From assembly GCA_035708165.1 (NCBI GenBank), contig DASSSZ010000005.1, forward strand, positions 112,840-176,839: a stretch of 64,000 bases of DNA, given 5' to 3'. Source of the DNA: Minisyncoccota bacterium. GTDB lineage: Bacteria > Patescibacteriota > Minisyncoccia > Phycocordibacterales > UBA2100. Within the stretch, counting starts at the first letter, position 1. Every line of letters begins with the position of its first letter. This document shows positions 6,203 through 28,047 of this stretch, one piece after another. The notes beneath the pieces are model-generated. The model was not told the origin of the DNA, ran no database searches, and saw only the letters and a program-made list of their open reading frames with translations. Both the position numbers and the translations under genes were made by a program.

Positions 6203-6229
6203 GCCCGCATTCTAGCAAACGCAGCAGGC

Positions 6230-7456
6230 TTAGAAATCGATCTCGATATGCTCAGGCCTGAATCCGAGACCGATGACACGCGCGGGGATGCGGCGCAGGA
6301 TCGGGAACCAGGCGAGGAACCGGAACGGCAGCGGCATGCGCACTCCTTTCTTCGCGCGAAGGATGGGGGCGAGGAACCGGTCCTGCAGCAGGACCTGCAG
6401 CTTCTGCATGCGCAGCGCCGCCGGCGCGCGCCTCGCCTCGACGGCGTTGAGCGTCGCGAGCGGGAGCGCGCCCTTCTTGGCGCGTAGCGCGGGCACGAGG
6501 ATGTTCGCGGCTCCGATCGCATCCGCGATCGCGTAATTGATGCCGACGCCGCCGACGGGGGACATCGCGTGCGCCGCGTCGCCGATCAGGAGGATGCCGT
6601 CCGCGGCCCACGGCGATACGTGATCAACCGCGACCGAGAGGAGCTTCACGTCGTCCCAGCTCTCGATGCCGGCGAGCGCGCCTTGGGGGAGCTTCGCGAG
6701 CGTGGCGATCGAGGAGCGGAACGCGTCCAGCCCTGCGGCCTTGATCGCATCGAATGCGCCTTTCTCGATGATGAATCCGCACTGCCAATAGTCGTGGCGG
6801 TCGAGCATCACGAGCGCGCCGCCTGCTTCCGTATACGCCAGCGATTCGCGCGTGTCGGCGTCGTGCCGGTCGATCCGGAACCAGAGCACATCGATCGGGA
6901 CGCCGAGCGCCGCGACCTTCGCGCCGAGCGCGTCGCGCATCGTCGAGTGGCGGCCGTCGGCGCCGATCACGAGATCCGCGCTGATATCGAACGCGCCATC
7001 GGCGTCGCGCGCCGTAATGCCGGTGATGCGGCCGCTCTCGTCGCGGATGAGCCCGGTCGCATCCGTCGCCATCAGGAGGGTGAACGCAGGGAACGCGGCG
7101 GCTTTGGTGGCGAGGAAATTGAGGAAATCCCACTGCGGGATGAACGCGATGAAACGCGCGCGAGTGGGGAGGTGCGAGAAATCGGCGACTGCCACTTCAT
7201 CGGGGCCTACGGTGAGCGACATACGCGCCATCTCGCTGTGCGGGAGCGCCAGGAACTCATCGAGGAGCCCGAGCTCGGCGAGCGCATCCATCGTGCTCGG
7301 GTGGATGGTATCTCCGCGGAAGTCGCGGAAGAAGTCCGGCCATTTCTCGAGCACGATGACGCTGATCCCGGCTCGCGCGAGGAGATAACCGAGCATGATG
7401 CCTGCGGGCCCGCCGCCGGCGATGCAGACGCGGGCCTCCTTGTGTCGTGTGTCCAT
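6230..7456 (-). CDS. FAD-dependent oxidoreductase (geranylgeranyl-reductase/UbiH-like)
   Basis: N-terminal Rossmann motif CIAGGGPAGIMLGYLLARAG. The likely start is MDTRHKEARV at 7456; the ORF extends to 7549. Confidence 0.7.
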   Translation of the reverse strand: MDTRHKEARVCIAGGGPAGIMLGYLLARAGISVIVLEKWPDFFRDFRGDTIHPSTMDALAELGLLDEFLALPHSEMARMSLTVGPDEVAVADFSHLPTRARFIAFIPQWDFLNFLATKAAAFPAFTLLMATDATGLIRDESGRITGITARDADGAFDISADLVIGADGRHSTMRDALGAKVAALGVPIDVLWFRIDRHDADTRESLAYTEAGGALVMLDRHDYWQCGFIIEKGAFDAIKAAGLDAFRSSIATLAKLPQGALAGIESWDDVKLLSVAVDHVSPWAADGILLIGDAAHAMSPVGGVGINYAIADAIGAANILVPALRAKKGALPLATLNAVEARRAPAALRMQKLQVLLQDRFLAPILRAKKGVRMPLPFRFLAWFPILRRIPARVIGLGFRPEHIEIDF

Positions 7457-7543
7457 GCCCTCAGTATACCCGTATCGGAGCGATCGGCGCCGGGAGCCCA
7501 CAGCACCGCTCTTCGCTGCGCAGAGATACGATACAATAGGCAT

Positions 7544-8389
7544 ATGCATGCACGTGCACTGTCATGCTGCCGGATCATCCTGGCATGCTTCGCGATTGCC
7601 ATAACCGCCCCTTCGGCGGCTATCGCTGCACAGCCCGCGGACGGGCTCGGCAGCGCGGTCGCGGTGACGGTCCCGTTCGCGGCAGCGCCGGGGGATATCA
7701 TCGCGTACGACGATGCGAGCGGCGCATACCGCCTCGCGCAGGAAGGTGACAGCGCCATCGCGGGCGTAGCTGTCGCGGATCCGCCCATCGTGCTCTTCAG
7801 CGGCACCGCAGCGAGCGGGACGCCGATCACGCGAAGCGGCAGCGTGCCGGTGCTGGTCTCGCTCGAGAATGGCCCGATCGCGGAAGGAGATGGCATCGCG
7901 ATCTCATCCGTCCCGGGCATCGGCATGCGAGCCGGCGCCTCGAGCAGCGCGGCAGTCGGCACTGCGCAGGAAGCGTTCGACGGGACGGATGCGACGGGCA
8001 CGCTCGCGATCGGCGGCCGCGCCGTGCCGGAAGACGCGATCAGCGTCATGCTCGCGGAGGCAGGTCCGGGCGCAGGCGGCGACGAGGGAGAAGGAGGCAT
8101 CGCCTGCACCGCTGGCGCGACCGCGTGCGCGATCATGGCGAAGATCAATGCTGCGCCGCTTGTCGCGCTGGTGCGCTACCTGCTCGCCGCCGCGCTCGCG
8201 TTCGGCTCGCTCTTCGTGGCCTTCCGGATCTTCGTCGCGAATGCGATCAACGGCATCGTCTCGATCGGGCGCAACCCGCTCGCCAAAGGCGCGATCCAGG
8301 CGATGATCATCCTCAACGCCGTGCTCGCAGCGTTCATCATGGTCGCGGGCGTCGGGGCGGGTATCGCCATCCTGCTCGTCCAGGCATGA
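7544..8389 (+). CDS. secreted/membrane protein with a C-terminal hairpin resembling ATP synthase subunit c (no carboxylate)
   Basis: Signal peptide MHARALSCCRIILACFAIAITAPSAAIAA is followed by an Ala/Gly-rich domain. The C-terminal two helices ...SIGRNPLAKGAIQAMIILNAVLAAFIMVAGVGAG resemble the c-subunit loop ARQPExKG...AVAE. The position that should hold the ion-binding Glu/Asp is Ala. The gene sits immediately upstream of atpF. Confidence 0.5.
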   Translation: MHARALSCCRIILACFAIAITAPSAAIAAQPADGLGSAVAVTVPFAAAPGDIIAYDDASGAYRLAQEGDSAIAGVAVADPPIVLFSGTAASGTPITRSGSVPVLVSLENGPIAEGDGIAISSVPGIGMRAGASSSAAVGTAQEAFDGTDATGTLAIGGRAVPEDAISVMLAEAGPGAGGDEGEGGIACTAGATACAIMAKINAAPLVALVRYLLAAALAFGSLFVAFRIFVANAINGIVSIGRNPLAKGAIQAMIILNAVLAAFIMVAGVGAGIAILLVQA

Positions 8390-8396
8390 CGCCCGC

Positions 8397-9080
8397 GTGC
8401 TAGCATATCCACGTATGATCCCTCTCGTCCTCTTCGCGATCGCCTCACTCGCTGTCCTGCTCATCGCGGCGGCGCTCGCGCTTGCGGCATACGCGTGGCT
8501 GCGCGGCCGGGGGGACGCGGCGCTCGCAAAGGAGGATGCGCGCCTGCGGGCCGAGCGCGAGGCGGCGGGCATCGTCGCGCATGCCGAGGACGAAGCGCGC
8601 GACCTCATGGGCGAGGCGCAGGAGGCGAGCATGCGGCTCGCATCCGCCCGCGCGTCTGAGGATGAGAAGGCGGCGCGCGCGTTCGAGGCGCGCTTCGATG
8701 CGCTCCTCGCGAAGCTCGAAGCCAGGCTCGATGCCACGGGCGAGGCGATCGCCGCGGCCGAGCAGCACGCGAGCGCCGAGGCCCTCGCGCGGCTCAAGGC
8801 ATCCGGCGAGACGGCACAGGCGCATCTCGAGGAGGCGCTTGCCGCGCTCGGGAAGGATGCATCCGCGCGGATCGAGACGGAGGTGGCGCAGGCGTTCTCA
8901 GCCGCGCGCGACGCAGCGGCGCAGTACGTCGCAGCGCGCACCGCGGCCGTGGATGCGCAGATAGGCGCGCTCATCAGCGAGACAGTGAAGGCGGTCCTCG
9001 GGAAAGACATGCCCGAGTCACTGACGGTCGAACTCGCGCAGAAGGCGCTCGAGGAGGCGAAAGCAGCGCATGTCTTCTAA
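8397..9080 (+). CDS. atpF: F0F1 ATP synthase subunit b-like
   Basis: One N-terminal TM helix followed by a long Ala/Glu/Arg-rich helix. Position is at the head of the atp cluster. Confidence 0.6.
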   Translation: MLAYPRMIPLVLFAIASLAVLLIAAALALAAYAWLRGRGDAALAKEDARLRAEREAAGIVAHAEDEARDLMGEAQEASMRLASARASEDEKAARAFEARFDALLAKLEARLDATGEAIAAAEQHASAEALARLKASGETAQAHLEEALAALGKDASARIETEVAQAFSAARDAAAQYVAARTAAVDAQIGALISETVKAVLGKDMPESLTVELAQKALEEAKAAHVF

Positions 9081-9570
9081 GAAGGAGGAGGTGGGAGCCG
9101 ATGCGCTGCTCGCGTCTCTCATCGCGAGCGCGTACACGCTGACGGATGCGCACGCCTGCATCCGCGCGCTTGCGGATGCCGTCGAGCGATCCCGTTTCGG
9201 CGCCGCTGCAGAAGACGCGGCGCGGGCTGCGCTGCCGTGGGGTGCCGCGACTATGCACGCGCTCGCGGGAGGGGAGGACGCGCACGATACGCTCACGGAG
9301 CTTGCGCGCAGGGCAGACGCCCTGCCAGTCCTGGTGCTCTATGTCCCGGCCGCGCTTTCTGCCGCCGGGGTCGAGCGCCTCGGCCGATGGTGCCGAGCGA
9401 ACATCGATCCGTCCCTCATGCTCTCGCTGCATACCGATCCCGCGGCGGCAGGCGGCTGCATCTTCGCTTGGCAGGATCATCTGCATGATTTCTCGCTCAG
9501 CTACTTCCTCGCGAAGGAGCGCGATGCCTTCTCGCGCGTGCTTGCAGCGCACGCCCCGGCTGTCGTATGA
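9070..9570 (+). CDS. atpH: F0F1 ATP synthase subunit delta-like (divergent)
   Basis: 166-aa helical protein between atpF and atpA, overlapping both neighbours by a few nt. The call rests on synteny. Confidence 0.5.
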   Translation: MSSKKEEVGADALLASLIASAYTLTDAHACIRALADAVERSRFGAAAEDAARAALPWGAATMHALAGGEDAHDTLTELARRADALPVLVLYVPAALSAAGVERLGRWCRANIDPSLMLSLHTDPAAAGGCIFAWQDHLHDFSLSYFLAKERDAFSRVLAAHAPAVV

Positions 9571-11017
9571 CTGATCGAACCGATACCCGCGGGACTGAAG
9601 TCGGCTTCATCGTCGAGGCGAAGCAGTACGTGCTCACGATCGAGGGACTGCCATCCGCGCGCGTGCACGACGTGATCGTAAGCCAGTCGGGGAGCCGGGC
9701 GCTCGTGCGCTCGCTCGCCGATGATCGCCTGACCGCGCTTGCGCTCGACCCGGTGGCGCCGCGCGTCGGCGATCGGTACGGCTTCCTGCCGGACGATCGC
9801 ATCTTCGCGCTCGGCGAGCATCTCTTCGGGCGGACGATCACGGTCCTCGGCGAGCCGATCGACGGCGGCGCGCCGTTCCCGGCCGGGAATGCCCGGCTCA
9901 CGCTCGATGCGCAGGCGCCGGGCATCGACGTGCGCGCGCCTATCGCCGGCATGCTCGAGACCGGCGTCACGCTGATCGACGCCTTGATCCCGATCGCCAA
10001 AGGCCAGCGGCAGCTCCTCTTCGGCGGCGCGCCGGGGAGCAAGGCATCGTTCCTCGAGGATGTCACGCTGCACCAGGCGTCGCTTGGCGCGGTATGCATC
10101 TACGCCGCGATCGGCATGTCGCTTTCCGAGCTCGAGCGCATCGAGCGGCGCGTCATGCGTGCTGCCACAGGCGATGTCATCCTCATCGCGGCGCTCTCGG
10201 ACCAGCCTTCGGCGCGCATCATGCTCGCGCCGGCGATCGCCTTCGAGATCGCCGCGCATTTCCAGGGGCAGGGGCGGGACGTCCTCGTCATCCTCGACGA
10301 TCTCGACGTCCATGCCAAGTACCTGCGCGAAGTGGCGCTGCTCGAAGGGCGGCTGCCAGGGCGCGAATCATACCCGGGCGATCTCTTCTATGAGCATGCG
10401 CACCTCCTCGAGCGTGCCGGCACCTTCGTCCCGGAGTTCGGCGGCGGCTCCATCACGGCCTTGCCGGTCATCAGGAGCGATCCCAATGCGGCGCTCGGCA
10501 TCGTCTCCACCAACCTGATGTCGACGACGGACGGTCATCTCGCGTTCGACCCCGCGCTCGAGCGCGAAGGCGCGTACCCCGCCGTGGACGAAGCAGCGTC
10601 CATCACGCGCGTGGGCCGGCTCTCGCAGACGCTCCTCGAGAAGCAGCTCTCGCTCGAAGTACGCCAGCGGCTCGCGGAGGCGAAGCGCCAGCGCCAGTAT
10701 GCTGCATTCGGCGCGCCGCTCGGCAAGGCAGCTGCCGACGCCGTGCGCCAGGCGGACATCATCATGGCGCTCTTGCGCCAGCGGCCGGGCGAGCGGGTCC
10801 CGCGCGACCTGGAGACGCCGCTCCTTACGCTCGCATTCACACCACTCCTCCTTTCCAAGGATACGGCGTTCGCGGCGGCCAAACGGCAGCAGCTCCTCGA
10901 CGGGCTCGGGGCCGATCCTGCGCTCGCCGAGCTGCGGACGAGCGCGCGGGAGGGGAGCATGCCGTTCGATGCGTTCCGGCGGCTGGTCGAAGGGAAGCAG
11001 GCAGCATTCGAAGCGCT

Positions 11018-13662: not shown

Positions 13663-16600
13663 ATGAGTCCCATGCCACGCTACACGCATGAGAAGACAGC
13701 CGCACCTCGGCGCGCTCGCGGTACGACCCGCCTCGGCGGGCTGCTTCTTGCGCTCATCGTGGTGCTCGCCGGCGTCGCTTCAGGCGTGCCGGGCCGGTTA
13801 ATGACACTCGCCTCGGTCCCGCGGACGCCGCTCCTTGCCGCTGCCGCAGCAGCAGATGCGACCGGTACCGCACCGATAGGTGCTGCCGCAACGAGCATGC
13901 CAGCGCTCGCGGGCGCGCCGAGCAAGCTCGGCATCAACGTCCCGCTCGAGCTCTCGCGTCCGCTTTCGGCGCAATCGGCTACCTTCGCGAAGGATGTGTC
14001 GGCGAACTCCCTCACGATCTCCGGCAGCGCGACCTTCGGGTCGCCGCTCTCGAGCCACGGCCCGGCGACGATCGACGGGCTGCTCGAAGCCGAGGGCGGC
14101 GTCTCGACGAACGGCGCCGATATCGACCTCGGCGGCGGCAAGCTGTTCGCGTCGAACGTGCTTTCCGGGATCACTGCGGGCACGAACGTCACGATCACCG
14201 GGCCGGCGAACCACCCCACGATCTCCGTCAGCATGCCGCAGCAGCAGGCGCCGATCTTCTTCGGTGGCGGAGGCGGCGGCCTCAGCTCGATCACGGCAGG
14301 GAGCGGGCTCTCGGGCGGCACGATCACGGGCGCTGGCACGCTCGCGCTCAACCTCGCCAGCGCGAACGTCTGGAGCGCGCTGCAGTCGTTCGGAGCCGGC
14401 GCATCGACGACCGATCTCGTCATCGCCGGCACCGCGACCACGAGTGCGCTTTCGATCACGAGCGCGACATCCACGCTGCTGAAGACCGATGCGAGCGGCG
14501 CCGTCATCCCGGCAATAGCGGGCGTGGACTACGAGCTGCCGGGCGGCCCGAACGCGGCCGACTGGCTCGTTACGGATGGCGCGCTCTCGCCGACATCCAC
14601 GATCGGCATCCTTATCGGGGCGAGCTCAACCGTGGGCGACGGCTCGCAGGCAGGCGGCCTCACGGTAGCGGGCGGCGCGACGACGACGGGGGACGCATAT
14701 ATCGGAGGGAACATGGCTGCAGCCGGTGCCCTTTCGATTACCGGCACGACGACGCTCGCGAGCATCGCCTCAGGCCTCGTGAAATCGGTCGGCGGCGTGC
14801 TCTCGGCGGCTATCGCCGGGACCGATTATGTCGCGACGTCGACCCTGGGCAGCTATTTCTCGCTTCCTGACTGGTATGCGACGACGACCGATGCCCTCGC
14901 CGAAGGCCCTACGAACAAGTACTACACCGACGCCCGCGTGCAGTCGTATCTCGATTCGCTCAGCAAGGGCTACTACTTCGGCACCACCTCAGCCGCATAC
15001 TTCCTCTCGCAGAACCAGGGCCTCGCGTTCTCTACTTCGTCCGCTAACTACCTTCTTTCTACGAAGGGCTACGGCACCTTCGGTTACCTCTTCCCGAACG
15101 ACGCGACGACGACCGGCCTCGGTTTCTATGCGTCGACGACGATCGGAGATGGGACGCAAGCCGGCGGCCTCACGATCGCCGGCAACGCGACGACGACCGG
15201 CTCTCTTACCATTTCAGGCACAGCGACCTCGACTTTCGCCAGCGGCATCGATCTCGCGAGCGGCTGCCTTGCGGTGAATGGCGCCTGTGTCGGCTCGGAC
15301 CCGTGGGTGGTGAGCGGCGCGGCGATCTCCTACGGGATGGGTAACGTGGGTATCGGGACGACGACGACGCCGTATGCGCTAACGGTCGCGGGCGATGGCA
15401 GCGTCTCCGGCGCGTTCACGGCAAAGAGCACGTTCATGGCTGGCGAGTACACCCGAGCGCTGCCGTGGCTCGATCGCACGGAAGCGGGTACACGCGATTG
15501 GGCTCCCGTCACATCCTCTTCGGATGGAACGCATATCGCCGCAGCGGTATATGGGGGTGATATCTATACCTCGACCGACGATGGCGCGACGTGGACTGAT
15601 CGCACGGCTGCCGGCAGCCGTAATTGGCAGTTCATCACGTCATCTTCCGACGGCATGAAGCTCGCAGCAGTAGTCAACGGCGGCGACATCTACACCTCGA
15701 CTGATGGCGGCGCGATCTGGACCGATCGTACTGCTGCCGGCAGCCGCAGTTGGCAGTCCGTTACCTCATCTTCCGACGGCACGTACCTTGCAGCGGCTGC
15801 CTATAACGGCGATATCTACACCTCGGCCGATGGCGGCGCGACGTGGACCGACCGCACCGCTGCGGGCGCGCGGTATTGGCGCTCCGTCACTTCATCTTCC
15901 GACGGCACGAGACTCGCGGCTGCGGACGGCGCCGCCGCCGGGTACATCTACACCTCTACCGATGGCGGCGCGACGTGGACAGTACGCACCGCTGCGGGCG
16001 GGCAGCGGTACTGGCAGTCCATCACTTCCTCCTCCGACGGCATGAAGCTCGCAGCGGTAGTCAACGGCGGCGACATCTACACCTCGACTGATGGCGGCGC
16101 GACCTGGACCGATCGTACTGCTGCCGGCAGCCGCAGTTGGCATGCCATTGCCTCGTCCGCTGACGGCTCGCTGATCATCGCGAGCGCGGATAATGGGAAT
16201 GTCTATACATCAAGCGACTCCGGTGCGACCTGGACGGAACAAACGGCGCTCGCTTCAGGTCGCTGGCTCGGCGTCAGCATGTCTGCTGACGGTACCAAGC
16301 TGGTAGCGGCAGCTCTTGGCGGCGATATCTGGGTATACGATGCTGCAGGCATCCAGACCCCTTCGTTCATCGTCGACTCGACGACCCACAACGTCGGCGT
16401 CGGCTCGACGACGCCTGGATCGCTCCTCGCCGTCGGCGATAGGAACGGCATCAATTTCTCGACCGCCACGAGCACGTTCTCTTCGATCGGCGGCATCAAC
16501 CTCTCTGCCGGCTGCTTCGCCGTCGATGGCACGTGCATCGGCACGGTCCCCTGGGCCACCAATGGCTCGGCTATTTCCTATACCGCCGGCAATGTGGGGA

Positions 16601-19011
16601 TTGGGACGACGACGCCGTTCGCTGCGCTTTCCGTCGCCGGCAATACGTTCCTCGGCGGTACGCTCACCGCGACCGGCACCGTCTCCTTCGCGAACGCTCT
16701 CGGTATTTCTTCCGGCGGCACGGGCCTCGGCACTGCTCCTGCCTATGGGAATCTGCTCCTCGGCAACGCGAGCGGCGGATACGATCTCGTCGCCACCAGC
16801 TCGCTCGGGATCAGCGCGCCGTGGACCACCAACGGTTCCACCGTCTCCTACATTGCCGGCAACGTCGGCATCGGCACCACTTCGCCCTTCGCGAAGCTCG
16901 CAGTCGCAGGCGATGGCTACTTCACGGGCGGGCTCACGGCATCGAGCTCCCTCGTGGCAGGCTTGTGGCAAACGTCCGTAGGAGGCGGATTCGGGACGCC
17001 GGTCTGGACCGACCGGACTTCTGCAGGCATTCGCAACTGGCATGCCATCACATCCTCTTCCGATGGCACGAAGCTCGCTGCTGTTGACGCTAGCGGCTAT
17101 ATCTACACCTCCACCGATTCCGGTGCTACCTGGACAGCTCGGGCAGCTACCGGCAGCCAGGAGTGGCAATCCATTACTTCTTCCGCCGACGGCACGAAAC
17201 TCACAGCTGCTGTTGCTTACGGCGATATTTTCACCTCCACCGATGGCGGCGCCACCTGGACCGATCGCACCGCTGCCGGCAGCAAGGTGTGGTACGCCAT
17301 CTCTTCTTCCGCCGACGGCACGAAACTCGCAGCTGCTGTCTATGCGGGTGATATATTCACCTCCGCTGATGGCGGCGCCACCTGGATCGACCGCACCGCT
17401 TCCGGCAGCCGAAATTGGGTTTCCATCACCTCCTCTTCCGACGGCACGAAACTCGCGGCTGTTGTCAATGGCGGTGATATCTATACCTCCACCGACTCCG
17501 GCGCTACCTGGACCGACCAGGCTGCCGCTGGCAGCCGCGATTGGATGAGCATCACCTCGAGCAGCGACGGTACGAAGCTTGCAGCAGCAGCCGGCAACGG
17601 CGATATTTTCACCTCCACCGATGGCGGCGCCACCTGGATCGACCGCACCGCTGCCGGTACACGCCGTTGGACTGCCATCACGTCATCTGCTGACGGCACT
17701 GCATTAGCAGCTGCGGTAAATTCTGGCGGCCATATCTACACCTCCGCTGACGGCGGCGTTACCTGGACCGACCAGACCGTCGCCGGTGGCCGCTCTTGGA
17801 CAGCTATTGCTTCCTCCGCCGACGGCGCAAAGCTCGCGGCCGCCGTCTATAACGGCGATATCTACACCTATAACGCCCCCTACACCCCGCCCACCATCAC
17901 GAAATATGCGACGTTCACGGTGGACGGATCGACTCACAACGTCGGCGTCGGCACGACGACGCCTTCGATGACGCTTCAGGTCGCCGGCTCGATCGGGCCG
18001 ACCGCCTCCTCGACCTATAATCTCGGATCTGCCACGTACAATTGGGGCTGCCTCTACTACGACGGCGGCACGCTCGGCACCTGCGCATCCGACGAGCGGC
18101 TGAAGACGAACATCCACGCGCTCAGCTTCGACATGGGCAGCTCGACGGCGCTCGATCAGATCGCGGGCCTCTCGCTGCATTCCTTCGCGTACAAGACGGC
18201 GAGCACGACCATCTACCATGGCTTGATCGCGCAGGAGGTGCGGAACGTGGCGCCGGAGCTCGTCGCCGTGAATGCTGCGACAGGCTTCTTCGAGGTGCGA
18301 TACGGCGACGTGCAGTGGCTCATGCTCGAGGCGCTGCAGCAGCTCATCGCGAAAGTGGATGCGCTCGAAAGCGCGGTCGCAGGCTTCGCGCAGGCGTTCG
18401 CTTCCGACAAGCTCACGGCGGGCAACGAGCTGTGCGTCGGCGACACGTGCGTGACCCCGGCGCAGTTCAAGGCGATAGTCGCAGCGGCGGGTGTGGCTGC
18501 GGCAGGCACGAGCACTGAGGCCGCCACCCCCGCTCCGACCATCACCCTCCTCGGCGCCAACCCCGCCGCCGTCTCCCTCAACGCCACCTACAACGATCTC
18601 GGCGCCACCGCGAAGGACGCCGAAGGCCACGACCTCGGCATCACGTACACAGTGAACGGCTCCACCACGCCTGCCGTCTCCCTCGATACCTCGACCAGCA
18701 CCACCTACACCATCATCTATACGGCTACTGACACGGACGGCCGCTCCGCTTCCGCTACCCGTACCGTGTATGTCGGCGCTGCGACCTCGACTGCACCGAC
18801 AGGCACGGACGCGACGAGCACGCCGAAGGGTTCGGATGGTACGGCGCCGGGCACTGAGCAGGATCAGACGAATGCGAACGATACCGCCTCTTCCACGCCG
18901 AGCGTGAGCGCCGATGCGAGCTCGACGCCATCGGCAGGCTCACTCGCCAGCAGCACGCCATCCGTGTCTTCTGATGCGACGAGTACGGCTGCGACCTCGA
19001 CGCCGAAGTAG
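13663..19011 (+). CDS. giant cell-surface protein: fiber-like Gly/Thr repeats, ~17 BNR/Asp-box repeats, an S74-type intramolecular-chaperone autoproteolytic domain, an Ig-like (DUF5011-type) domain and a Ser/Thr-rich tail
   Basis: Start ATG at 13663 with GGGAG about 11 nt upstream. N-terminal TM/signal segment LGGLLLALIVVLAG. Repeated VGIGTTTP...L(T/S)VAG units. About 17 repeats of S-x-D-G-G-A-T-W...W..I(T/A)SS(S/A)DG. An SDERLKTNI...GLIAQEV chaperone/autocleavage motif near aa 1480. TVNGSTTPAVSLDTSTSTTYTIIYTATDTDG Ig-like domain. Confidence 0.8.
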   Translation: MSPMPRYTHEKTAAPRRARGTTRLGGLLLALIVVLAGVASGVPGRLMTLASVPRTPLLAAAAAADATGTAPIGAAATSMPALAGAPSKLGINVPLELSRPLSAQSATFAKDVSANSLTISGSATFGSPLSSHGPATIDGLLEAEGGVSTNGADIDLGGGKLFASNVLSGITAGTNVTITGPANHPTISVSMPQQQAPIFFGGGGGGLSSITAGSGLSGGTITGAGTLALNLASANVWSALQSFGAGASTTDLVIAGTATTSALSITSATSTLLKTDASGAVIPAIAGVDYELPGGPNAADWLVTDGALSPTSTIGILIGASSTVGDGSQAGGLTVAGGATTTGDAYIGGNMAAAGALSITGTTTLASIASGLVKSVGGVLSAAIAGTDYVATSTLGSYFSLPDWYATTTDALAEGPTNKYYTDARVQSYLDSLSKGYYFGTTSAAYFLSQNQGLAFSTSSANYLLSTKGYGTFGYLFPNDATTTGLGFYASTTIGDGTQAGGLTIAGNATTTGSLTISGTATSTFASGIDLASGCLAVNGACVGSDPWVVSGAAISYGMGNVGIGTTTTPYALTVAGDGSVSGAFTAKSTFMAGEYTRALPWLDRTEAGTRDWAPVTSSSDGTHIAAAVYGGDIYTSTDDGATWTDRTAAGSRNWQFITSSSDGMKLAAVVNGGDIYTSTDGGAIWTDRTAAGSRSWQSVTSSSDGTYLAAAAYNGDIYTSADGGATWTDRTAAGARYWRSVTSSSDGTRLAAADGAAAGYIYTSTDGGATWTVRTAAGGQRYWQSITSSSDGMKLAAVVNGGDIYTSTDGGATWTDRTAAGSRSWHAIASSADGSLIIASADNGNVYTSSDSGATWTEQTALASGRWLGVSMSADGTKLVAAALGGDIWVYDAAGIQTPSFIVDSTTHNVGVGSTTPGSLLAVGDRNGINFSTATSTFSSIGGINLSAGCFAVDGTCIGTVPWATNGSAISYTAGNVGIGTTTPFAALSVAGNTFLGGTLTATGTVSFANALGISSGGTGLGTAPAYGNLLLGNASGGYDLVATSSLGISAPWTTNGSTVSYIAGNVGIGTTSPFAKLAVAGDGYFTGGLTASSSLVAGLWQTSVGGGFGTPVWTDRTSAGIRNWHAITSSSDGTKLAAVDASGYIYTSTDSGATWTARAATGSQEWQSITSSADGTKLTAAVAYGDIFTSTDGGATWTDRTAAGSKVWYAISSSADGTKLAAAVYAGDIFTSADGGATWIDRTASGSRNWVSITSSSDGTKLAAVVNGGDIYTSTDSGATWTDQAAAGSRDWMSITSSSDGTKLAAAAGNGDIFTSTDGGATWIDRTAAGTRRWTAITSSADGTALAAAVNSGGHIYTSADGGVTWTDQTVAGGRSWTAIASSADGAKLAAAVYNGDIYTYNAPYTPPTITKYATFTVDGSTHNVGVGTTTPSMTLQVAGSIGPTASSTYNLGSATYNWGCLYYDGGTLGTCASDERLKTNIHALSFDMGSSTALDQIAGLSLHSFAYKTASTTIYHGLIAQEVRNVAPELVAVNAATGFFEVRYGDVQWLMLEALQQLIAKVDALESAVAGFAQAFASDKLTAGNELCVGDTCVTPAQFKAIVAAAGVAAAGTSTEAATPAPTITLLGANPAAVSLNATYNDLGATAKDAEGHDLGITYTVNGSTTPAVSLDTSTSTTYTIIYTATDTDGRSASATRTVYVGAATSTAPTGTDATSTPKGSDGTAPGTEQDQTNANDTASSTPSVSADASSTPSAGSLASSTPSVSSDATSTAATSTPK

Positions 19012-19025
19012 CGGCACGCATACGA

Positions 19026-19052
19026 AACGCCCCGCCTGAATGGCGGGGCGTT
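19026..19052. terminator. bidirectional rho-independent terminator hairpin
   Basis: aacgccccgcc-tgaat-ggcggggcgtt is a perfect 11-bp stem between convergent genes, followed by a T-run. Confidence 0.65.
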
Positions 19053-19068: not shown

Positions 19069-20862
19069 TTAGATCGTGAGGAGCGAAGTGATCGACGAGA
19101 GAAGGGAACAGGTCTCGCCGCAGGAGCCGCCCGGCGTCGTGCCGGTCATGGCCTCGAAGTGGCTGTCGATCTCGGACTGGCTGAGGAGGCGGTCATACAC
19201 CGCGACCTTGCCGACGGCGCCCTTGAAGAAGGTATCCATCGCCATCGTGCCGATATCGAGCGGCGAGCCGCCGGCCTTCGGCGTGATCTTGTACTGGCTC
19301 ATGCAGCCGGTCGGTGCATGGTCCGCGAAGCTCTGCTTCACGCCGTCGACCCAGATGCTGATCGAGCCAGGGTACTGCGAGGAGCAGCCCGACGGCGTCG
19401 TCTTCGTCTGGTACTCGGCGACGACATAGACCCACTCGCCGGAAGCGATCTGTCCCTTCGACGGCTGCCAGTCCGCGGCGCTGCCGAGGCCCGCCGACGG
19501 GTTGAAGACGTAGGCCGAGAGGCGCTCCGGACGGCCCTCGGCCGTATCGGATCCGTAGATGCGGGCCTCCCACTCGCACGAGGGCGAGTAGTCCTCGCAC
19601 TTGCCCATCCAGTCCACGTAGCCGTCATCGCTATCCTTGGGGAAGGAGAACGTGTCGGCGCGGACCCAGCCTTCCCAGGTGAGCGCGCCCGTGGCGGGGA
19701 TGGAGAACGAGCGATCGGACGGGACAGTCAGGTACTGGCTCGTGCCGTTGAAATCGGCCGCCGTATCACCGTTCGGGAGCGTCGCCGAAGACGGCGTGCC
19801 GCCCTTGTAGGTGCCAGTGTGGCCGTTGCCCGAGAGGTCCTGCTCATGGCCGGAAGCCATGCCATCCATCGCGAGGTAGAGGACAGGCTTCGCGGCAAGG
19901 ATCGTCGCGTCGTACGCGGTGCCGGCCTTGGTGCTGCTCGTGCCGCTCTCAGCCGGAGCCGGATCGGATGCGACAGGGTCGCTCGATGCGGCCGCTGCCG
20001 ACGCCGCTGTCTCGAAGTTATCGAAGACGAGGTCGCCGAAGGTGCTCTCGATGCCGGCCGTACCAGCCTTCGCGAGCGTCGCGTCCGAGTCGAGCGCGGA
20101 CGCCGCGAGGGTCCAGCGGCCGGTCCAGCCGATGTCGGTGTAGAGGCTGAGCTTCTGGCCCTTCGACGTGTTGGTCACGTCGAGCTTGAGGCCGACCCAC
20201 TTATTGAGCGGGATCAGATCGGCATCGCCGCTCGCGCTCCATGTGCCCGGAAGCACCTTCTTCACGGCGAGCGTGGTGAACGAGCCGTTCACCTTGCGCT
20301 TGATGACGACATTGCCGTCAGCGCGGATGCCGGCGTAGTAGTAATCATTCCCGTCCTGGTAGCGCGCGATGACGGACTCGCCGTTGTACGCGTGCCGGTT
20401 CGCCGCGTTCGACAGGTTGTCGCGGATGCGGTCGAAGTAGGCGGAGACGGACCCGTCCGCGAGCGCCTGCTTCGTCAGCATGAGGAAGCTGTTCTGCGGA
20501 TGCGTGCCGCTATCCGACCAGACGGCGCTGCCGCTGCGCTTCTGCGCTCCTTGGAGCGTCTGGCCGCGGCCGCCCTTGATCACGAGGGCGTCGCCCTCCG
20601 CGAGCCAGAAGTACGGGCTCGTGCTATTCGCAGGAGAGGACGCCTCACGCAGGGTGCCGGCGCTGTTGAACGTATAAAGGAAGGGATTCGGCACTGCGCT
20701 CTGCGCGGTTGCCGGCGCTGCCGGGACGAGCACGGCTGCTGCCGTGATCACGCCCGCAAGCGCGATGCCGAACGTGCCGAGGGCGCGGAGCGCCTGCGGA
20801 CGAGCGGCATGGGATAACGGAGGGTTCATAGGATCACGTCCGGGGCGGAGCGAAGGCTCCAT
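19069..20862 (-). CDS. secreted protein with concanavalin A-like lectin/glucanase (LamG-like) jelly-roll domains
   Basis: N-terminal signal/TM (LGTFGIALAGVITAAAVLVPAAPATA). The C-terminal half has the LamG-like pattern (TWEGWVRAD...VYVVAEY...SIWVDGVKQ...AVYDRLLSQSEI). The start (MEPSL versus MNPPL) is uncertain. Confidence 0.6.
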   Translation of the reverse strand: MEPSLRPGRDPMNPPLSHAARPQALRALGTFGIALAGVITAAAVLVPAAPATAQSAVPNPFLYTFNSAGTLREASSPANSTSPYFWLAEGDALVIKGGRGQTLQGAQKRSGSAVWSDSGTHPQNSFLMLTKQALADGSVSAYFDRIRDNLSNAANRHAYNGESVIARYQDGNDYYYAGIRADGNVVIKRKVNGSFTTLAVKKVLPGTWSASGDADLIPLNKWVGLKLDVTNTSKGQKLSLYTDIGWTGRWTLAASALDSDATLAKAGTAGIESTFGDLVFDNFETAASAAAASSDPVASDPAPAESGTSSTKAGTAYDATILAAKPVLYLAMDGMASGHEQDLSGNGHTGTYKGGTPSSATLPNGDTAADFNGTSQYLTVPSDRSFSIPATGALTWEGWVRADTFSFPKDSDDGYVDWMGKCEDYSPSCEWEARIYGSDTAEGRPERLSAYVFNPSAGLGSAADWQPSKGQIASGEWVYVVAEYQTKTTPSGCSSQYPGSISIWVDGVKQSFADHAPTGCMSQYKITPKAGGSPLDIGTMAMDTFFKGAVGKVAVYDRLLSQSEIDSHFEAMTGTTPGGSCGETCSLLSSITSLLTI

Positions 20863-21101
20863 CCGGACTGCTGTTCATTGGTCGTGTAATCAGCGGGTGG
20901 CATACGTTCCTGAGTTTGAGATGAACGCACCGCAGGGTCATGTTCGCGCAGCGGCTACGGAGAATCAAATGAAGCCGCCACCATGAACAAGCCGCTCATA
21001 TTCATATGCGGTTCACCGGGGCTGCATACCATAGCACTAACGCCACGATCCTCTGTATGAAGTTATCAAGACTCGTCTTTGCATAATCGAACACGATCCA
21101 T

Positions 21102-22925
21102 ATGAATCCCAGGCCCTTTGCAGTGTGGGGGTTGGTGTGCCTGTTCGTGCTTGCGCCCGCCGTCTCGGCTGCGGCGACGCTTCGCGTGCGCACGGAGAGC
21201 GCGCTTCCGCTGCAGATGCTGCGCGATAAGGATGTCACGGCGCCGATCGGCGCCTCGATACGTCCCGCACGCATCCCCGCGAGCGCGCCGCTTCTGCAGA
21301 TGCACGCGCTCTCCGTGGCGCAGCCGGCGCAGCAGAACCTGATCGGCAACGCTTCGCTCGAGACAGCCGGATCGAATGGCATGCCTGCCGGCTGGCACCA
21401 AGGCGGCTACGGCTCGAACACGCGCACCTTCGCGTACCCGGCATCGCCCGCGCACGACGGCAGCGTCGCCGCATCGGTCTCCATCACGAAATACGGAAGC
21501 GGTGACGCGAAGTGGTACTTCGACCCGGTGCCCGTTACCGGGGGAGCGACGTACCAGTTCTCGGACTGGTACGTGTCGACCGTACCGTCCGAAGTGGACG
21601 TGCAGGTCACGCATACGGACGGTTCGATCACGTACCTCGTCCTTGGCGCGCCCGCGGCGAGCGCGACGTATGCGCAGTTCAGCGCCTCGTTCACTGCGCC
21701 GTCGGATGCGGCGTCCGTCACCATCTTCCATGTGATCGACTCCGTGGGCACGCTCACGGTGGATCAGTATGCGCTGACGGATGCCGCCGATGACACGCCC
21801 GTGAACGACGTGCCGAACGGGAATCTCGATGCGGAGGAGGACGGTATGCCGGTCGGCTGGATCGAAGGGGGATACGGCGACAGCACGCGCACGTTCACCT
21901 ACCCGGTGCCGGGCGTCTCGGGGAATGCCGCGTCCCTTACGGTCACTGATTACGTGAACGGCGACGCGAAGTGGGGCCCGCCGTACGCGTCCGTCCCAGC
22001 CGGCGCCTACCTCTATGAGGACGACTACGAATCGGATGCGCCCACGGTCCTCACGGCCGACTTCGCGCATGCCGACGGGACCGACCAGTACGTGGACCTC
22101 GCCGTGCTCCCGGCCGAGCGCAGCTGGACGCACGTACGCCTGCCGTTCACGGTACCGGCGGATGCGATCGGCGTGCGCGTGTTCCATCTGCTCGACCGAG
22201 ACGGCACCCTCACGATCGACAATACCTCGATCACGCCGCAGCCCGGGAGCGATCAGGGCATCTTCAAGACGGGCGCGGTCACCTTCCGCTTCGATGACGG
22301 CAGCGTGGACCAGTACGACAACGCTGCGCCGGTGCTTCAGGTGGCGGGATTCACAGGCACCTTCTATATCGTCTCGCACCAGGTGAAGGACAACGGCTAC
22401 AGCGGCTACATGTCGATCGCGCAGGTGAAAGACCTCTACGCGCGCGGCTTCGAGATCGGCGCGCACACGCGCACGCATCCCTTCCTCTCGCAGGAGAGCG
22501 CCGCAAAGCAGCAGGATGAGATCGCCGGCTCGCGGCAGGACATCCTCGGCTGGAATGTCGGGCCGGTGGATTCATTCGCGTATCCCTATGGCGATTATGA
22601 CGCGACCACCACGCGGATCGTCGAGAATGCCGGCTTCACGAGCGCGGCAGCCACCATCTCCGGCGATGTGACGCCTCTCTCGGACCACTACCAGCTGCAG
22701 TACGAGGAGGTGAAGCAGGGCGTGACGCTCGCGCAGGTGCAATCGTGGATCGACACGGCCAAGAAATCGCACACCTGGCTCATCCTCACGTTCCATCAGG
22801 TCTCCGCGACCTCGAGCGACTCGTACGCGTCCTCGCCAGCGCTCTTCAAGCAGATCGTCGCGGCCGTGCAGGCATCCGGGCTCCCCGTAGTCTCCGTCTC
22901 CGAAGGGATGCAGTCCATGCCCTAG
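21102..22925 (+). CDS. secreted polysaccharide deacetylase (NodB/CE4) with two N-terminal CBM4/9-like carbohydrate-binding modules
   Basis: Signal peptide MNPRPFAVWGLVCLFVLAPAVSA. A duplicated ~150-aa module (NLxGNxxLE...MPxGW..GGYG..TRTFxYP...DAKW). The C-terminal NodB domain carries FRFDDG...HTRTHP...YPYG motifs. Confidence 0.8.
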   Translation: MNPRPFAVWGLVCLFVLAPAVSAAATLRVRTESALPLQMLRDKDVTAPIGASIRPARIPASAPLLQMHALSVAQPAQQNLIGNASLETAGSNGMPAGWHQGGYGSNTRTFAYPASPAHDGSVAASVSITKYGSGDAKWYFDPVPVTGGATYQFSDWYVSTVPSEVDVQVTHTDGSITYLVLGAPAASATYAQFSASFTAPSDAASVTIFHVIDSVGTLTVDQYALTDAADDTPVNDVPNGNLDAEEDGMPVGWIEGGYGDSTRTFTYPVPGVSGNAASLTVTDYVNGDAKWGPPYASVPAGAYLYEDDYESDAPTVLTADFAHADGTDQYVDLAVLPAERSWTHVRLPFTVPADAIGVRVFHLLDRDGTLTIDNTSITPQPGSDQGIFKTGAVTFRFDDGSVDQYDNAAPVLQVAGFTGTFYIVSHQVKDNGYSGYMSIAQVKDLYARGFEIGAHTRTHPFLSQESAAKQQDEIAGSRQDILGWNVGPVDSFAYPYGDYDATTTRIVENAGFTSAAATISGDVTPLSDHYQLQYEEVKQGVTLAQVQSWIDTAKKSHTWLILTFHQVSATSSDSYASSPALFKQIVAAVQASGLPVVSVSEGMQSMP

Positions 22926-24388: not shown

Positions 24389-25042
24389 TCAGGCCCGTGC
24401 AAGGGCGAGCGCGGTCACCGCGGCCCCTTGCGTGCGCAGCGTGCGGGCCGCTTCCGTAAGCGTCGCCCCGGTCGTAGTGACGTCGTCGATGAGGATCGCG
24501 TGCACGCCCTGGTACGCGGCCCTCGGGAGGGGCGCTGCGAACGCGCCTTTGACGTTGGTGAGCCGCGCATGCCGCGAAAGCAGGGTCTGCGGCGTCGTCT
24601 CCCGGGTGCGCGCGAGGAGATCGGCGCGCACCGGGAGCGCGATGCCGAGCGCCGGGAGCTCCGCGAGGGAAAGCGCGATCTGATTGTAGCCGCGCTCGCG
24701 GAAGCGCCGCTTCGCAAGCGGCATCGGGACGAGCACGAGCGCTCGCGCATCGAATGCGTCCTCCTCGCCCATGAGCTCGAGCAGAAAATCGGCGAGCAGC
24801 CCTGCGAGCTGGCGCGCTGCAGCGCGGCTCTTCTCATACTTGAGCGCCTGGATCGCGTCGGCGATGGATGAATCGCGGTACAGCGAAAGCGCGATGATCG
24901 CATCGTCCGTCGCGGCAGGCGCAGCGGGGAGCGGGCGGCGCGCGTTCCTGCGTACGCGCCGCTCGCGCGCGGACGGCGGGAACACGAGATCAAGGATCGC
25001 ATTCCCGGCATGCACTGCTTGTGCACCGAGAGGGATGCGCAT
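24389..25042 (-). CDS. comFC: ComF-family competence protein (phosphoribosyltransferase domain)
   Basis: PRTase motif ILIDDVTTTGATL and ComFC-like core. It is divergent from pilM. Confidence 0.75.
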   Translation of the reverse strand: MRIPLGAQAVHAGNAILDLVFPPSARERRVRRNARRPLPAAPAATDDAIIALSLYRDSSIADAIQALKYEKSRAAARQLAGLLADFLLELMGEEDAFDARALVLVPMPLAKRRFRERGYNQIALSLAELPALGIALPVRADLLARTRETTPQTLLSRHARLTNVKGAFAAPLPRAAYQGVHAILIDDVTTTGATLTEAARTLRTQGAAVTALALARA

Positions 25043-25086
25043 GCAGCCACTATAGCGGATTACCCGATGCTATACTGTGTACATCT

Positions 25087-26238
25087 ATGCCACGGATCGG
25101 TCTTTCGCAGATCCTCAGCAAGGCGCAAGCCTTCCTCGGCCAAGGGACGCCGACATCGGTGCTCGGCATCGACGTCGGCTCCTCGTCGCTGAAGGTGGTG
25201 CAGCTGAAGATGGTCCGCGAGACGGTCGTGCTCGAGACGTACGGCGAGATCGCGCTCGGGCCGTATGCGAACCAGCCCGTCGGCAAGACGGTGCGGCTCG
25301 ACCCTGAACAGATCGCGGCGGCGATCGGCGACCTCTCGAAGGAGGCGAACGTCACGGCCACGCACGCCGGCGTCGCGATCCCGTTCTCCTCGAGCCTCGT
25401 CTCGATCATCGACATGCCCAAGGTGGGGGAGAGCCAGCTCTCGCGCATGATCCCGATCGAGGCGCGCAAGTACATCCCGGTCCCGATCACGGAAGTGACG
25501 CTCGATTGGTTCGTCATCCCAGAGAAGCACGAGGAGGACGCGTTCGATCGCGTGCAGGAAGAGACTGAGATGCAGAAGACGGGGCGCGAGGTGCTGATCG
25601 CCGCGATCCACAACGAGACGATCCGGAATTTCCAGACCACCATGGAGACCGCGAAGATCGCCGTCTCCTTCTTCGAGATCGAGATCTTCAGCACGATCCG
25701 CTCCGTGCTCGGCACGGGCATCGAGCCGGTCGTCGTGGTGGATATCGGCGCCTCGACGACCAAGATCTACGTCGTCGAGCGGGGGATCGTGCGCGCATCC
25801 CACCTCGTCTCGATCGGCTCGCAGTCGCTCACGGAGGCAGTCGCTCGCTCGCTCGGGTGGACGTTTGAGAAAGCGGAGCGCATGAAGCGCGAGTGGGGGC
25901 TCACCGACTCGGATGCGTACAGCCGCGATGAGAACGATCGCATGCATGAAGCGATGCTATCCACATTGTCGCGTATCTTCGCGGAAGTGAATCGCGTATT
26001 ATTGACGTACGGGAAGCGGTACAACAAGAACGTCTCGCAAGTCGTATTCGTCGGCGGAGGCGCAGCGTTGGCCGGGCTTGCCGATATCGCGACGAAAGAG
26101 CTGAACGTGGATACCGTCATGGCCGCGCCGTTCGACAAGGTCGAGGCGCCGGCGTTCCTCGATGGGGTCCTGCATTCGATCGGGCCGGGATTCGCAGTCG
26201 CAGTCGGCGTCGCGATGCGGCGCCTGAGGCAGGGATAG
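25087..26238 (+). CDS. pilM: type IV pilus assembly protein PilM (actin-like ATPase)
   Basis: LGIDVGSSSLKVVQL N-terminus and an actin/FtsA-like fold signature. The in-frame start is MPRIGLSQ at 25087. Confidence 0.85.
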   Translation: MPRIGLSQILSKAQAFLGQGTPTSVLGIDVGSSSLKVVQLKMVRETVVLETYGEIALGPYANQPVGKTVRLDPEQIAAAIGDLSKEANVTATHAGVAIPFSSSLVSIIDMPKVGESQLSRMIPIEARKYIPVPITEVTLDWFVIPEKHEEDAFDRVQEETEMQKTGREVLIAAIHNETIRNFQTTMETAKIAVSFFEIEIFSTIRSVLGTGIEPVVVVDIGASTTKIYVVERGIVRASHLVSIGSQSLTEAVARSLGWTFEKAERMKREWGLTDSDAYSRDENDRMHEAMLSTLSRIFAEVNRVLLTYGKRYNKNVSQVVFVGGGAALAGLADIATKELNVDTVMAAPFDKVEAPAFLDGVLHSIGPGFAVAVGVAMRRLRQG

Positions 26239-26253
26239 ACCCGACCATACCGC

Positions 26254-27021
26254 ATGGAATCGCAGATCAAGTCATCATTCATACCGCAGGACGTCGGCAG
26301 GCCGGCAGCATCGGTGCGCCGCACCGGCAGCGGCGGCGAGCTCCTGGTGCTCGGCGCCATCATCCTCGTCGTCGCATCGGTCGCGCTCGGGGCGTCCGTC
26401 TTCCTCTATACGCAGTATCTCAATAATGCGATCAGCAGCCAGCAGCAATCGATCGATCGGGCGCGCGCGGCGATCGAGCCATCCCTCATCGATGAGCTCA
26501 CCCGCCTCGATCAGCGCATGAAGACGTCCGATACGCTCCTGCAGCAGCACGTCGCGCCTTCGATCCTCTTCAATTACCTCGAGCAGGTGACGCTCCAGTC
26601 GGTCACCCTCAAGTCGCTCGAGATGAAGATGGTCTCGCCGACCAAGATCGAGCTCACGATGAAAGGCGCGGCGGCGAGCGTCAACGGCATCGCGCTGCAA
26701 TCCGATCTCCTCGGCAAGAGCGGCCTCATCACGAGCCCGATCTTCTCCGATATCAATCGCGGTGCCGATGGACTGATGGATTTCCAGGTGAACGCGGGGA
26801 TCGATCCCTCGTCGCTTCGCTACGAGCAGCTCGTGAGCGGCGGCCAGCCGGCAGCAGGCGCGCAGCTTTCGGCACCGCAGCAATCATCCGCGACGAACGG
26901 GAGCGCCGCTGGCGGCCTGCCGCAGTCCTCGGCGCCAGCGACGAGCGGCACGCAGGCGACCAGCACCGGCGCTGCGTCGTCGGCCGCAGCATCAGTCCCG
27001 ACGTTCACCCCCACCCAGTAA
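26254..27021 (+). CDS. pilN: PilN-like pilus assembly protein
   Basis: Short cytoplasmic N-terminus, single TM (LLVLGAIILVVASVALGASVFLY) and a coiled-coil periplasmic part. Synteny pilM-N-O. Confidence 0.55.
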   Translation: MESQIKSSFIPQDVGRPAASVRRTGSGGELLVLGAIILVVASVALGASVFLYTQYLNNAISSQQQSIDRARAAIEPSLIDELTRLDQRMKTSDTLLQQHVAPSILFNYLEQVTLQSVTLKSLEMKMVSPTKIELTMKGAAASVNGIALQSDLLGKSGLITSPIFSDINRGADGLMDFQVNAGIDPSSLRYEQLVSGGQPAAGAQLSAPQQSSATNGSAAGGLPQSSAPATSGTQATSTGAASSAAASVPTFTPTQ

Positions 27022-27024
27022 CGT

Positions 27025-27624: not shown

Positions 27625-27633
27625 CACCTGCTT

Positions 27634-27999: not shown

Positions 28000-28047
28000 C
28001 CCGCGCACGCCGCGCATGCGGCAGCATCGGGTACAATACGTAGACGT

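Follow-up and report, generated by a model that had tools for sequence, protein, structure and literature searches.

The 64,000-nucleotide stretch of DNA considered here (the window) contains a gene for a giant repetitive protein at positions 13663..19011 (+ strand). The family to which it belongs is large, mosaic and mostly from Patescibacteria, and it consists of fibres that resemble the mosaic adhesive trimer (MAT) fibres of Bdellovibrio. Members of this family carry a constant cassette, in which an S74 chaperone domain is followed by a cysteine hairpin and an immunoglobulin (Ig)-like domain. It is considered probable that the protein is a MAT-like, S74-processed homotrimeric surface fibre, Sec-exported and N-terminally anchored, of a Paceibacterota bacterium of the candidate phyla radiation (CPR). 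Its features are best explained by placing it in one class with phage tail fibres and Bdellovibrio MAT fibres. S74 fibres are already known from phages and from the MAT system; what is new here is that the S74 domain is internal and has a conserved cassette behind it. The data as yet require no new mechanism.

The open reading frame (ORF) is uninterrupted and encodes 1782 amino acids followed by a stop codon. Another in-frame ATG is present at 13582, but it is unlikely to be the start codon because translation from it would overlap the preceding gene, atpC. The product corresponds to NCBI HET8581460.1, an "immunoglobulin-like domain-containing protein" of 1779 amino acids that starts 3 amino acids downstream of 13663. 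HET8581460.1 is encoded on a 178.7-kb contig of a Candidatus Paceibacterota metagenome-assembled genome and forms a singleton cluster at 90% identity. A first-pass annotation of the window, made from the sequence alone, had described a surface protein of a putatively symbiotic lineage. The host is indeed a CPR bacterium, and it is probably symbiotic.

S74 domain and predicted self-cleavage

An S74 intramolecular chaperone/autoprotease domain occupies residues 1476-1580 (18088..18402, + strand). Pfam Peptidase_S74 (PF13884) was matched at residues 1476-1534 (E 7e-10, 39.4 bits against a cutoff of 22), so the domain proposed in the first-pass annotation is present. Its catalytic dyad is also intact. 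Codons 18088-18105 encode SDERLK, with Ser1476 at 18088-18090 and Lys1481 at 18103-18105. The Ser-Lys spacing of 5 residues is the same as in endoNF (S911/K916) and in MYRF (MyRF; S587/K592) (PMC8326128). The domain also contains F1508, Y1510, the sequence G1520-L-I-A-Q-E and a heptad-patterned helix at residues 1547-1580. F1508 and Y1510 align with Y615 and Y617 of MyRF, and GLIAQE aligns with GVIAQE of MyRF.

A profile built from the cassette matched solved S74 domains with E values from 7e-18 to 2e-4. These included a tail fibre (8jov, 7e-18), the MyRF ICA (7dc3, 2e-14), a long tail fibre tip (6f45, 4e-12), T5 pb1 (8hqz), and the GA-1 appendage (3gud). The helix was modelled by AlphaFold2 as a monomer with a predicted local distance difference test (pLDDT) score of ~90, and it has the 3-4-3-4 hydrophobic spacing of an a/d heptad. 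The AlphaFold model of the C-terminal 383 amino acids has a confident S74 fold. When this model, which has a low predicted TM-score (pTM 0.39), was compared with the PDB through Foldseek, only the Ig domain was matched and the S74 part had no structural match.

The S74 domain is internal. From the catalytic Ser to the protein end there are 307 residues, ~200 of which lie past the chaperone helix, an arrangement that was correctly pointed out as atypical for phage proteins. MyRF is cleaved N-terminal of its catalytic Ser, at P586|S587 (PMC8326128). Because MyRF cleaves just before its Ser, the predicted cut in the window protein is Ala1475|Ser1476, and not after the Ser as had first been proposed. 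The calculated fragments of this predicted cut are ~146 kDa (142 kDa without the leader) and 30.8 kDa.

Shaft and homology to MAT fibres

The S74 domain is preceded by a stalk (residues 1410-1475; 17890..18087, + strand) that ends at the predicted scissile bond and contains the best MAT-type repeat of the protein. When a profile of the stalk only was searched against the PDB, the matches were five crystal structures of Bdellovibrio MAT fibres and nothing else. These were Bd2133 (8ond, E 1.5e-16, with three repeats), 8ojn (4.6e-10), 8oml, 8ol4, and 8on4. The motif common to the stalk and the MAT structures is ...id.sGNVGIGTtaPtskLhV.G.... With the stalk profile, five MAT-type units were identified in the protein, at residues 559-590, 902-956, 972-1011, 1055-1096, and 1410-1474. 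The first of these is a beta-helix/capping-loop repeat (15337..15432, + strand) with the sequence GNVGIGTTTTPYALTVAG, and the next three lie in shaft region 2 (16366..16950, + strand). The fibre-like VGIGTTTP repeats of the first-pass annotation are borne out by five occurrences of the motif [VI]G[IV]G[ST]T. The inter-propeller shaft, used as a single sequence, had no match in the PDB, and the MAT homology is visible only with a family profile. These profile matches place the shaft among the homologues of the Bdellovibrio MAT fibres.

Shaft region 1 (residues ~130-558; 14050..15336, + strand) is rich in Gly, Ala, Thr, and Ser. Shaft modules (residues ~130-558 and 896-1100) recur, shuffled and multiplied, in other giant proteins of Patescibacteria. 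One shaft segment, TTDALAEGPTNKYYTDARVQSYLDSL (window 14860-15070, residues ~400-470), is without a Pfam model. Other giant CPR proteins, among them P0007, P0013, and P0031, contain numerous segments like TTDALAEGPTNKYYTDARVQSYLDSL.

The first 130 residues are unique, of low complexity and Ala/Pro-rich, and no relative of this part was found among the retrieved proteins. A Kyte-Doolittle scan identified one hydrophobic segment, the sole one in the protein, at residues 24-42 (13732..13788, + strand), with the basic N-tail RRARGTTR before it. This segment is probably a signal-anchor or signal peptide, and the remainder of the protein would then be outside the cell. There are 8 Cys in total, and these form four close pairs, 535/542 in shaft region 1, 951/958 in shaft region 2, 1463/1474 in the stalk, and 1591/1596 after the S74 domain. 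A single N-terminal hydrophobic segment together with paired Cys fits an exported protein whose bulk is extracellular. An LPXTG-type sorting motif was looked for in the protein and was absent.

Beta-propellers

Two BNR/Asp-box beta-propellers are inserted in the shaft, propeller 1 at residues ~601-895 (15463..16347, + strand) and propeller 2 at residues ~1112-1405 (16996..17877, + strand). A total of 12 canonical S-x-D-x-G-x-x-W Asp boxes were found, in two groups of 6 with a spacing of 42-44 amino acids; the seventh blade of each array lacks such a box. Six boxed blades and one unboxed blade per array therefore make two 7-bladed propellers with 14 blades, instead of the ~17 Asp-box blades first counted. 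The AlphaFold model of residues 555-935 contains 7 blades of 4 strands each (pTM 0.75, core pLDDT >90). Its best structural matches were to the 7-bladed Ycf48 (Foldseek E 1.6e-15; TM-score 0.60 query-normalised and 0.73 target-normalised). The segment with propeller 2 (residues 1060-1440) is 61% identical to the segment with propeller 1 (residues 555-935).

Sortilin-Vps10/BNR repeats were identified by Pfam (E 1e-20), and PSII_BNR was also matched. Pfam BNR_2, which had been suggested for this protein, had no match in it, and the F/YRIP (FRIP/RIP) motif of sialidases was looked for and was absent. A sialidase or endosialidase propeller (glycoside hydrolase families GH33 and GH58) was thus rejected, as there are 7 blades and not 6, no RIP motif, no BNR_2, and a best fold of Ycf48. 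Ycf48 and GH74 propellers have the same 7-bladed Asp-box fold as the fibre propellers. However, the fibre propellers are repeated modules inserted in a fibre, have a sequence identity of 15-21% to them, and share no functional residues with them.

Conserved C-terminal cassette

The S74 domain is followed by a conserved element at residues 1581-1612 (18403..18498, + strand). It consists of an L-C-V-G-x-T-C-V-T hairpin with Cys1591 and Cys1596 and then a short helix, and it belongs to no Pfam family. An Ig-like beta-sandwich, PF16403 (DUF5011), comes next at residues 1626-1705 (18538..18777, + strand) and is conserved better than any other part of the cassette. The Pfam match to this family (Bact_surface_Ig-like, formerly DUF5011) spans residues 1627-1704 (E 9e-12, 45.3 bits against a cutoff of 27). 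The AlphaFold2 model of residues 1626-1705 has a pLDDT of ~95, and in Foldseek it gave Ig-like matches such as 5fq7_H (target-normalised TM-score 0.76). Among the nearest matches by fold are the SraP adhesin and SusCD-associated BT2261-4 domains. The last 77 amino acids (18778..19008, + strand) form a disordered Ser/Thr/Ala/Pro tail that is 45% Ser+Thr and ends in DATSTAATSTPK. The first-pass annotation had named both a DUF5011-like Ig domain and a Ser/Thr-rich tail after the S74 domain, and both are there. The tail may also be glycosylated, as that annotation had proposed.

The end of the protein, ...ATSTPK (window 18970-19008), is a variant of a family-wide ...ATSTxQ-COOH ending. Among 163 full-cassette proteins, 79 (48%) end in Gln, typically as ...ATSTAQ or ...ATSTSQ (e.g., P0173, P0180, P0264, and P0265). 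A terminal Gln is found in 6-11% of the other retrieved proteins, and the background of Gln is 3.5% (binomial P ~3e-69). The ATSTxQ ending could be a processing, sorting or glycosylation signal.

The cassette is complete, in the order S74, coiled coil, Cys hairpin and Ig domain, in at least 163 of 378 retrieved proteins, which range from 402 to 7214 amino acids. A full-length search identified dozens of Patescibacteria proteins of 1000-3000 amino acids with PF13884 and PF16403 together. In an iterated search, the module of S74, helix, hairpin, and Ig domain was contiguous and mostly ended a few residues from the C-terminus. It sits on unrelated, hypervariable N-terminal parts. When 1.84 billion cluster representatives were searched with a profile, 8,969 matched at E<=1e-30, tandem-Ig proteins included. 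The Ig domain is missing from one subgroup of the relatives, in which the S74 domain and the hairpin are present. In GTDB species genomes, a profile from a 5-sequence alignment led to more than 394 confirmed stretches. The protein had been described as a domesticated or chimeric phage-fibre adhesin; an idiosyncratic fusion does not agree with the number of retrieved proteins and GTDB stretches that possess the cassette. The database labels of the relatives are "tail fiber domain-containing" or "DUF5011 domain-containing". A literature search gave nothing relevant that links S74/PF13884 with Patescibacteria, CPR or DUF5011.

The named cassette proteins are mostly from Patescibacteria, with some from Alphaproteobacteria. 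Seventy-nine loci were kept from the confirmed GTDB stretches. Most of these are labelled Paceibacterota, Kaiserbacteria, Adlerbacteria, Nomurabacteria, Parcubacteria or Saccharibacteria, and several genomes possess two or more cassette paralogues or loci. When the ORFs in the 5 kb after the fibre gene were clustered across the 79 loci, no conserved partner gene was found. The ORF clusters, present in 8-11 loci each, were syntenic housekeeping genes (apparently GAPDH-, RpiB-, epimerase- and transketolase-like, as assigned by eye) and a transposase-like ORF.

The full cassette is also present in Alphaproteobacteria, including the isolate Methylocystis suflitae NLS-7. The Methylocystis protein, encoded within positions 234-9850 of locus L030, has 1147 amino acids, with S74 at residues 855-911 and PF16403 at residues 1024-1103. 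It adjoins a tyrosine integrase, a trypsin-like protease, and a HerA/TrwB-like ATPase, and the cassette is therefore island-borne outside CPR. Of 50,697 phage records, 214 give a match. No record among the 50,697 covers the cassette beyond the S74 part, and the Ig part is never covered.

Conservation was counted in 229 relatives, and pairwise identities were calculated among 162 full-cassette proteins. Ser1476 is kept in 228 of 228 relatives, while Lys1481, Gly1520, and Ala1523 are each kept in 229 of 229. Position 1508 is aromatic in all, and Cys1591 and Cys1596 are each kept in 192 of 197. The invariance of the dyad argues that autoproteolysis is under selection across the family. Mean pairwise identity is 37% for the stalk, 47.5% for the S74 core, 35% for the coiled-coil helix, 40% for the hairpin, and 55% for the Ig domain. 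That the Ig domain is the best conserved part of otherwise hypervariable proteins argues for a constant partner or role, and its degree of conservation suggests that the domain may have an additional function.

Comparison with known S74 proteins

There are 21 MAT fibres in B. bacteriovorus, 13 of which end in an S74 domain with SDxxxK (Caulton et al., 2024; PMC10769870). The authors describe them as adhesins that trimerise and that, through diverse tips, promote the interaction of predator and prey (PMC10769870). One of them, Bd3182, self-cleaves at S782, an S782A mutant does not, and the departure of the chaperone after cleavage exposes a binding cleft (PMC10769870). The MAT fibres and the window protein are both cellular, non-phage exported proteins of ~1000 amino acids or more. 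They have homologous shaft repeats with the GNVGIGTxxP...L.V.G capping-loop motif and an S74 domain with SDxxxK. Both belong to multi-paralogue families with mosaic, swapped modules, and both kinds of host live by contact with other bacteria. There are also differences. The MAT fibres end in S74, whereas in the window protein the S74 domain is followed by ~200 residues with the Cys hairpin, the PF16403 Ig domain, and the Ser/Thr tail. Two BNR propellers are present in the shaft of the window protein, unlike in MAT fibres. A ~130-amino acid beta-rich domain directly after the signal peptide is common to all 21 MATs (PMC10769870). The first 130 amino acids of the window protein have low complexity and no relative among the retrieved proteins. 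As a monoderm-like CPR bacterium, the host is also of a different lineage from the MAT host Bdellovibrio. CPR and DUF5011 are unmentioned in the supplements of the MAT paper (PMC10769870).

The phage S74 proteins (K1F endoNF, T5 pb1, and GA-1 gp12; MEROPS S74) have the same domain and the same dyad spacing, and in them a trimeric beta-helical stalk comes before the domain, as is predicted for the window protein. EndoNF, like the window protein, combines an Asp-box propeller, a stalk, and a chaperone. In the phage proteins, however, the S74 domain is the extreme C-terminus (133-153 amino acids) and the N-terminus docks on the virion. The window protein instead possesses a probable N-terminal membrane/export segment and conserved domains past S74, and its propellers are 7-bladed and Ycf48-like where the phage endosialidase propeller is a 6-bladed sialidase.

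The only precedent for an internal S74 domain is eukaryotic MYRF. The MYRF/MrfA ICA has more sequence downstream of it, as in the window protein, and the match of the cassette profile to it has an E value of 2e-14. Cleavage of MYRF just before the Ser depends on trimerisation via a C-terminal coiled coil (PMC8326128). MYRF is a membrane-tethered transcription factor, and cleavage frees its N-terminal DNA-binding part. Its downstream part is a transmembrane helix and a luminal domain, while in the window protein the membrane segment is N-terminal and the rest would be extracellular. Some giant S74 fibres of the family (P0153, P0092, P0048, P0216, and P0038) have an N-terminal HTH_17/excisionase-like DNA-binding domain, apparently cytoplasmic, before the ectodomain, which accounts for their name "helix-turn-helix domain-containing protein" at NCBI. 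The layout of helix-turn-helix domain, membrane segment, fibre and S74 is reminiscent of MYRF with its membrane tether, except that S74 would lie on the opposite side of the membrane.

Proposed assembly and alternative explanations

The sequence analysis itself shows the domain content, the catalytic residues, conservation across the family, homology of the shaft to MAT fibres, and a chromosomal position outside a prophage. Trimer formation, cleavage, membrane topology, a function in adhesion, and the fate and role of a released Ig-bearing fragment can be inferred for the window protein, and a possible course of assembly is as follows. The protein would be exported by Sec and held by its N-terminal segment, as its single hydrophobic segment indicates. 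The five MAT-type repeats, with other Gly/Thr-rich modules, would form a trimeric shaft. The two 7-bladed propellers of each chain would project as lateral knobs, in two tiers of three in the trimer, and would likely be the ligand (glycan) binding heads for a partner cell. The S74 domain would be last out of the translocon. Its coiled-coil helix could then trimerise and template folding of the stalk and shaft, as suggested by homology to endoNF, T5, MyRF, and Bd3182. Ser1476-Lys1481 would cut Ala1475|Ser1476 to give a fibre of ~142-146 kDa and a C-fragment of ~31 kDa with S74, hairpin, Ig domain, and Ser/Thr tail. The variable shaft and propellers would recognise the partner cell, and the constant C-terminal cassette would serve for assembly.

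Several observations weigh against this model or parts of it. If residues 24-42 are a cleaved signal peptide, which they could be, no obvious anchor would be left. No ligand can be named for the propellers. A sigma-70-like promoter was looked for upstream of the fibre gene and was not found. Apparent conservation is inflated, since the sequences compared were collected with a profile of the cassette itself. In addition, the Ig domain (55%) is better conserved than the S74 core (47.5%) and the stalk (37%), which is odd for a purely disposable pro-peptide.

The ~200 residues past the chaperone can be read in three ways, as a disposable extension, as a distal tip that is retained, or as a sorting or docking signal that is shed. 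In the last of these, the cassette of S74, coiled coil, disulfide hairpin, Ig domain, and ATSTxQ ending would be a conserved sorting/docking module for giant surface fibres of Patescibacteria and some Alphaproteobacteria. The Ig domain and the ATSTxQ tail would bind an envelope or export/assembly component and hold nascent C-termini there, and trimer-dependent self-cleavage would release the trimer and deploy the fibre. This can be likened to the C-terminal domain of the type IX secretion system (T9SS) or to the release of MYRF from its membrane tether. It is rated below the model above and is thought unlikely, yet the conservation pattern and the family C-terminal ending favour it. The Ig domain surpasses all other cassette segments in conservation, on proteins that are otherwise hypervariable, nearly half of the full-cassette proteins end in the Gln of A-T-S-T-x-Q, the Cys1591/Cys1596 hairpin is kept, and phages carry the S74 part alone and never the Ig domain. 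On the other hand, no conserved sortase, peptidase or transporter gene lies beside the 79 loci, and the window protein ends in ...TPK and not in Q. PF16403 domains are also common, generic modules of surface proteins, and there are relatives with S74 and hairpin that do without the Ig domain. A retained tip, in which S74 trimerises the fibre and the C-fragment stays, either uncleaved or non-covalently bound, with the Ig domain and glycosylated tail as a distal adhesive tip, is regarded as rather unlikely. An N-terminal anchor would make the C-terminus the distal end, Ig-like domains are frequent as adhesin tips, SraP and BT2261-4 are among the closest fold matches, and the Ig domain is strongly conserved. 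However, the Ser/Lys invariance (228/228 and 229/229) argues that cleavage is selected, and the chaperone leaves after cleavage in endoNF, T5 pb1, and Bd3182 (PMC10769870). A tip for diverse partners should also vary, and the Ig domain is the constant part.

Two other explanations concern the fibre as a whole. The first would make it an enzyme, a depolymerase or glycoside hydrolase with catalytic propellers, in the manner of endosialidase tailspikes or GH74 xyloglucanases. A BNR propeller, a trimeric stalk, and an S74 domain occur together in endosialidases. GH74 propellers are among the Foldseek fold matches, and the best NCBIfam match is F510_1955 "glycosylhydrolase" (135 bits). That score, however, is below the cutoff of 175, and the propellers are Ycf48-like with 7 blades, not sialidase-like with 6, and have neither FRIP/RIP nor BNR_2. 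Their repeats are near-idealised, without evident active-site asymmetry, and ~210 amino acids of shaft lie between the propellers, so that no GH74 two-propeller cleft is possible. An enzymatic role is therefore considered very unlikely. The other explanation, that the gene encodes the tail fibre of a prophage or phage remnant, could draw on the S74 domain and GIGTT repeats as classic tail-fibre features, on the 214 phage records that match the S74 part, and on the integrase beside the Methylocystis homologue. It is highly improbable and was rejected on genomic context. The gene starts 55 bp after atpC among genes for housekeeping and surface proteins, with no capsid, tail or terminase genes, and its GC content equals that of the host region. 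The N-terminal export/anchor segment and the lack of any phage record extending past the S74 part of the cassette also speak against it.

The MAT-like surface fibre thus remains the favoured explanation, and the family may mediate attachment to partner cells. Host recognition by CPR/Patescibacteria is largely unexplained, and the literature that was found concerns type IV pili, addressed in Saccharibacteria studies. A mosaic family of phage-like fibres that are kin of Bdellovibrio prey-recognition fibres provides testable host-range candidates in uncultured symbionts. The internal S74 domain and the conserved Ig/tail cassette do not fit the picture of a terminal, disposable chaperone and could reveal an extra step of assembly or sorting. 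If the sorting signal, unlikely as it is, proved to be true, it would represent a new principle of protein targeting in monoderm-like ultrasmall bacteria and would name the main family of candidate CPR host-recognition fibres.

Genomic context

The fibre gene follows the last gene of an F-type ATP synthase operon (atpA-G-D-C), of which the alpha, beta, and epsilon subunits were confirmed by Pfam. No phage structural genes (capsid, tail or terminase) were found near it, and GC is uniform at ~63-67% across the locus. The fibre gene is therefore chromosomal and outside any prophage. A weak terminator-like hairpin is present after its stop codon, at 19033-19050. Other genes around the locus include RecG, a PIF1-like helicase, a type IV pilus cluster, LigA, and a GatA-like amidase.

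The fibre gene converges on a gene for a 597-amino acid Laminin_G_3 (ConA-like lectin) protein, which is followed by a gene for a 607-amino acid protein with CBM_4_9 and polysaccharide deacetylase domains (window 19069-22925). Both neighbours are thus surface or glycan proteins as well. Farther downstream, at a distance of 6-13 kb from the fibre gene, is the type IV pilus cluster (25021-32693). Two of its products, PilM (25021-26238) and a PilB-type T2SSE ATPase (28048-29919), were confirmed by Pfam, and more ORFs come after them.

A tRNA-Ile with the anticodon TAT was identified by ARAGORN at 2023-2097, where a tRNA was also confirmed by Rfam. At the other end of the window (57570-64000), GC drops from ~65% to 45-50% right after a tRNA-Gln (57570-57641). 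This low-GC stretch contains an ORF for an AAA_21/SMC-like ATPase (57716-60529, + strand) and a large serine recombinase (60521-61843, - strand), and it is probably a genomic island integrated at the tRNA-Gln gene.

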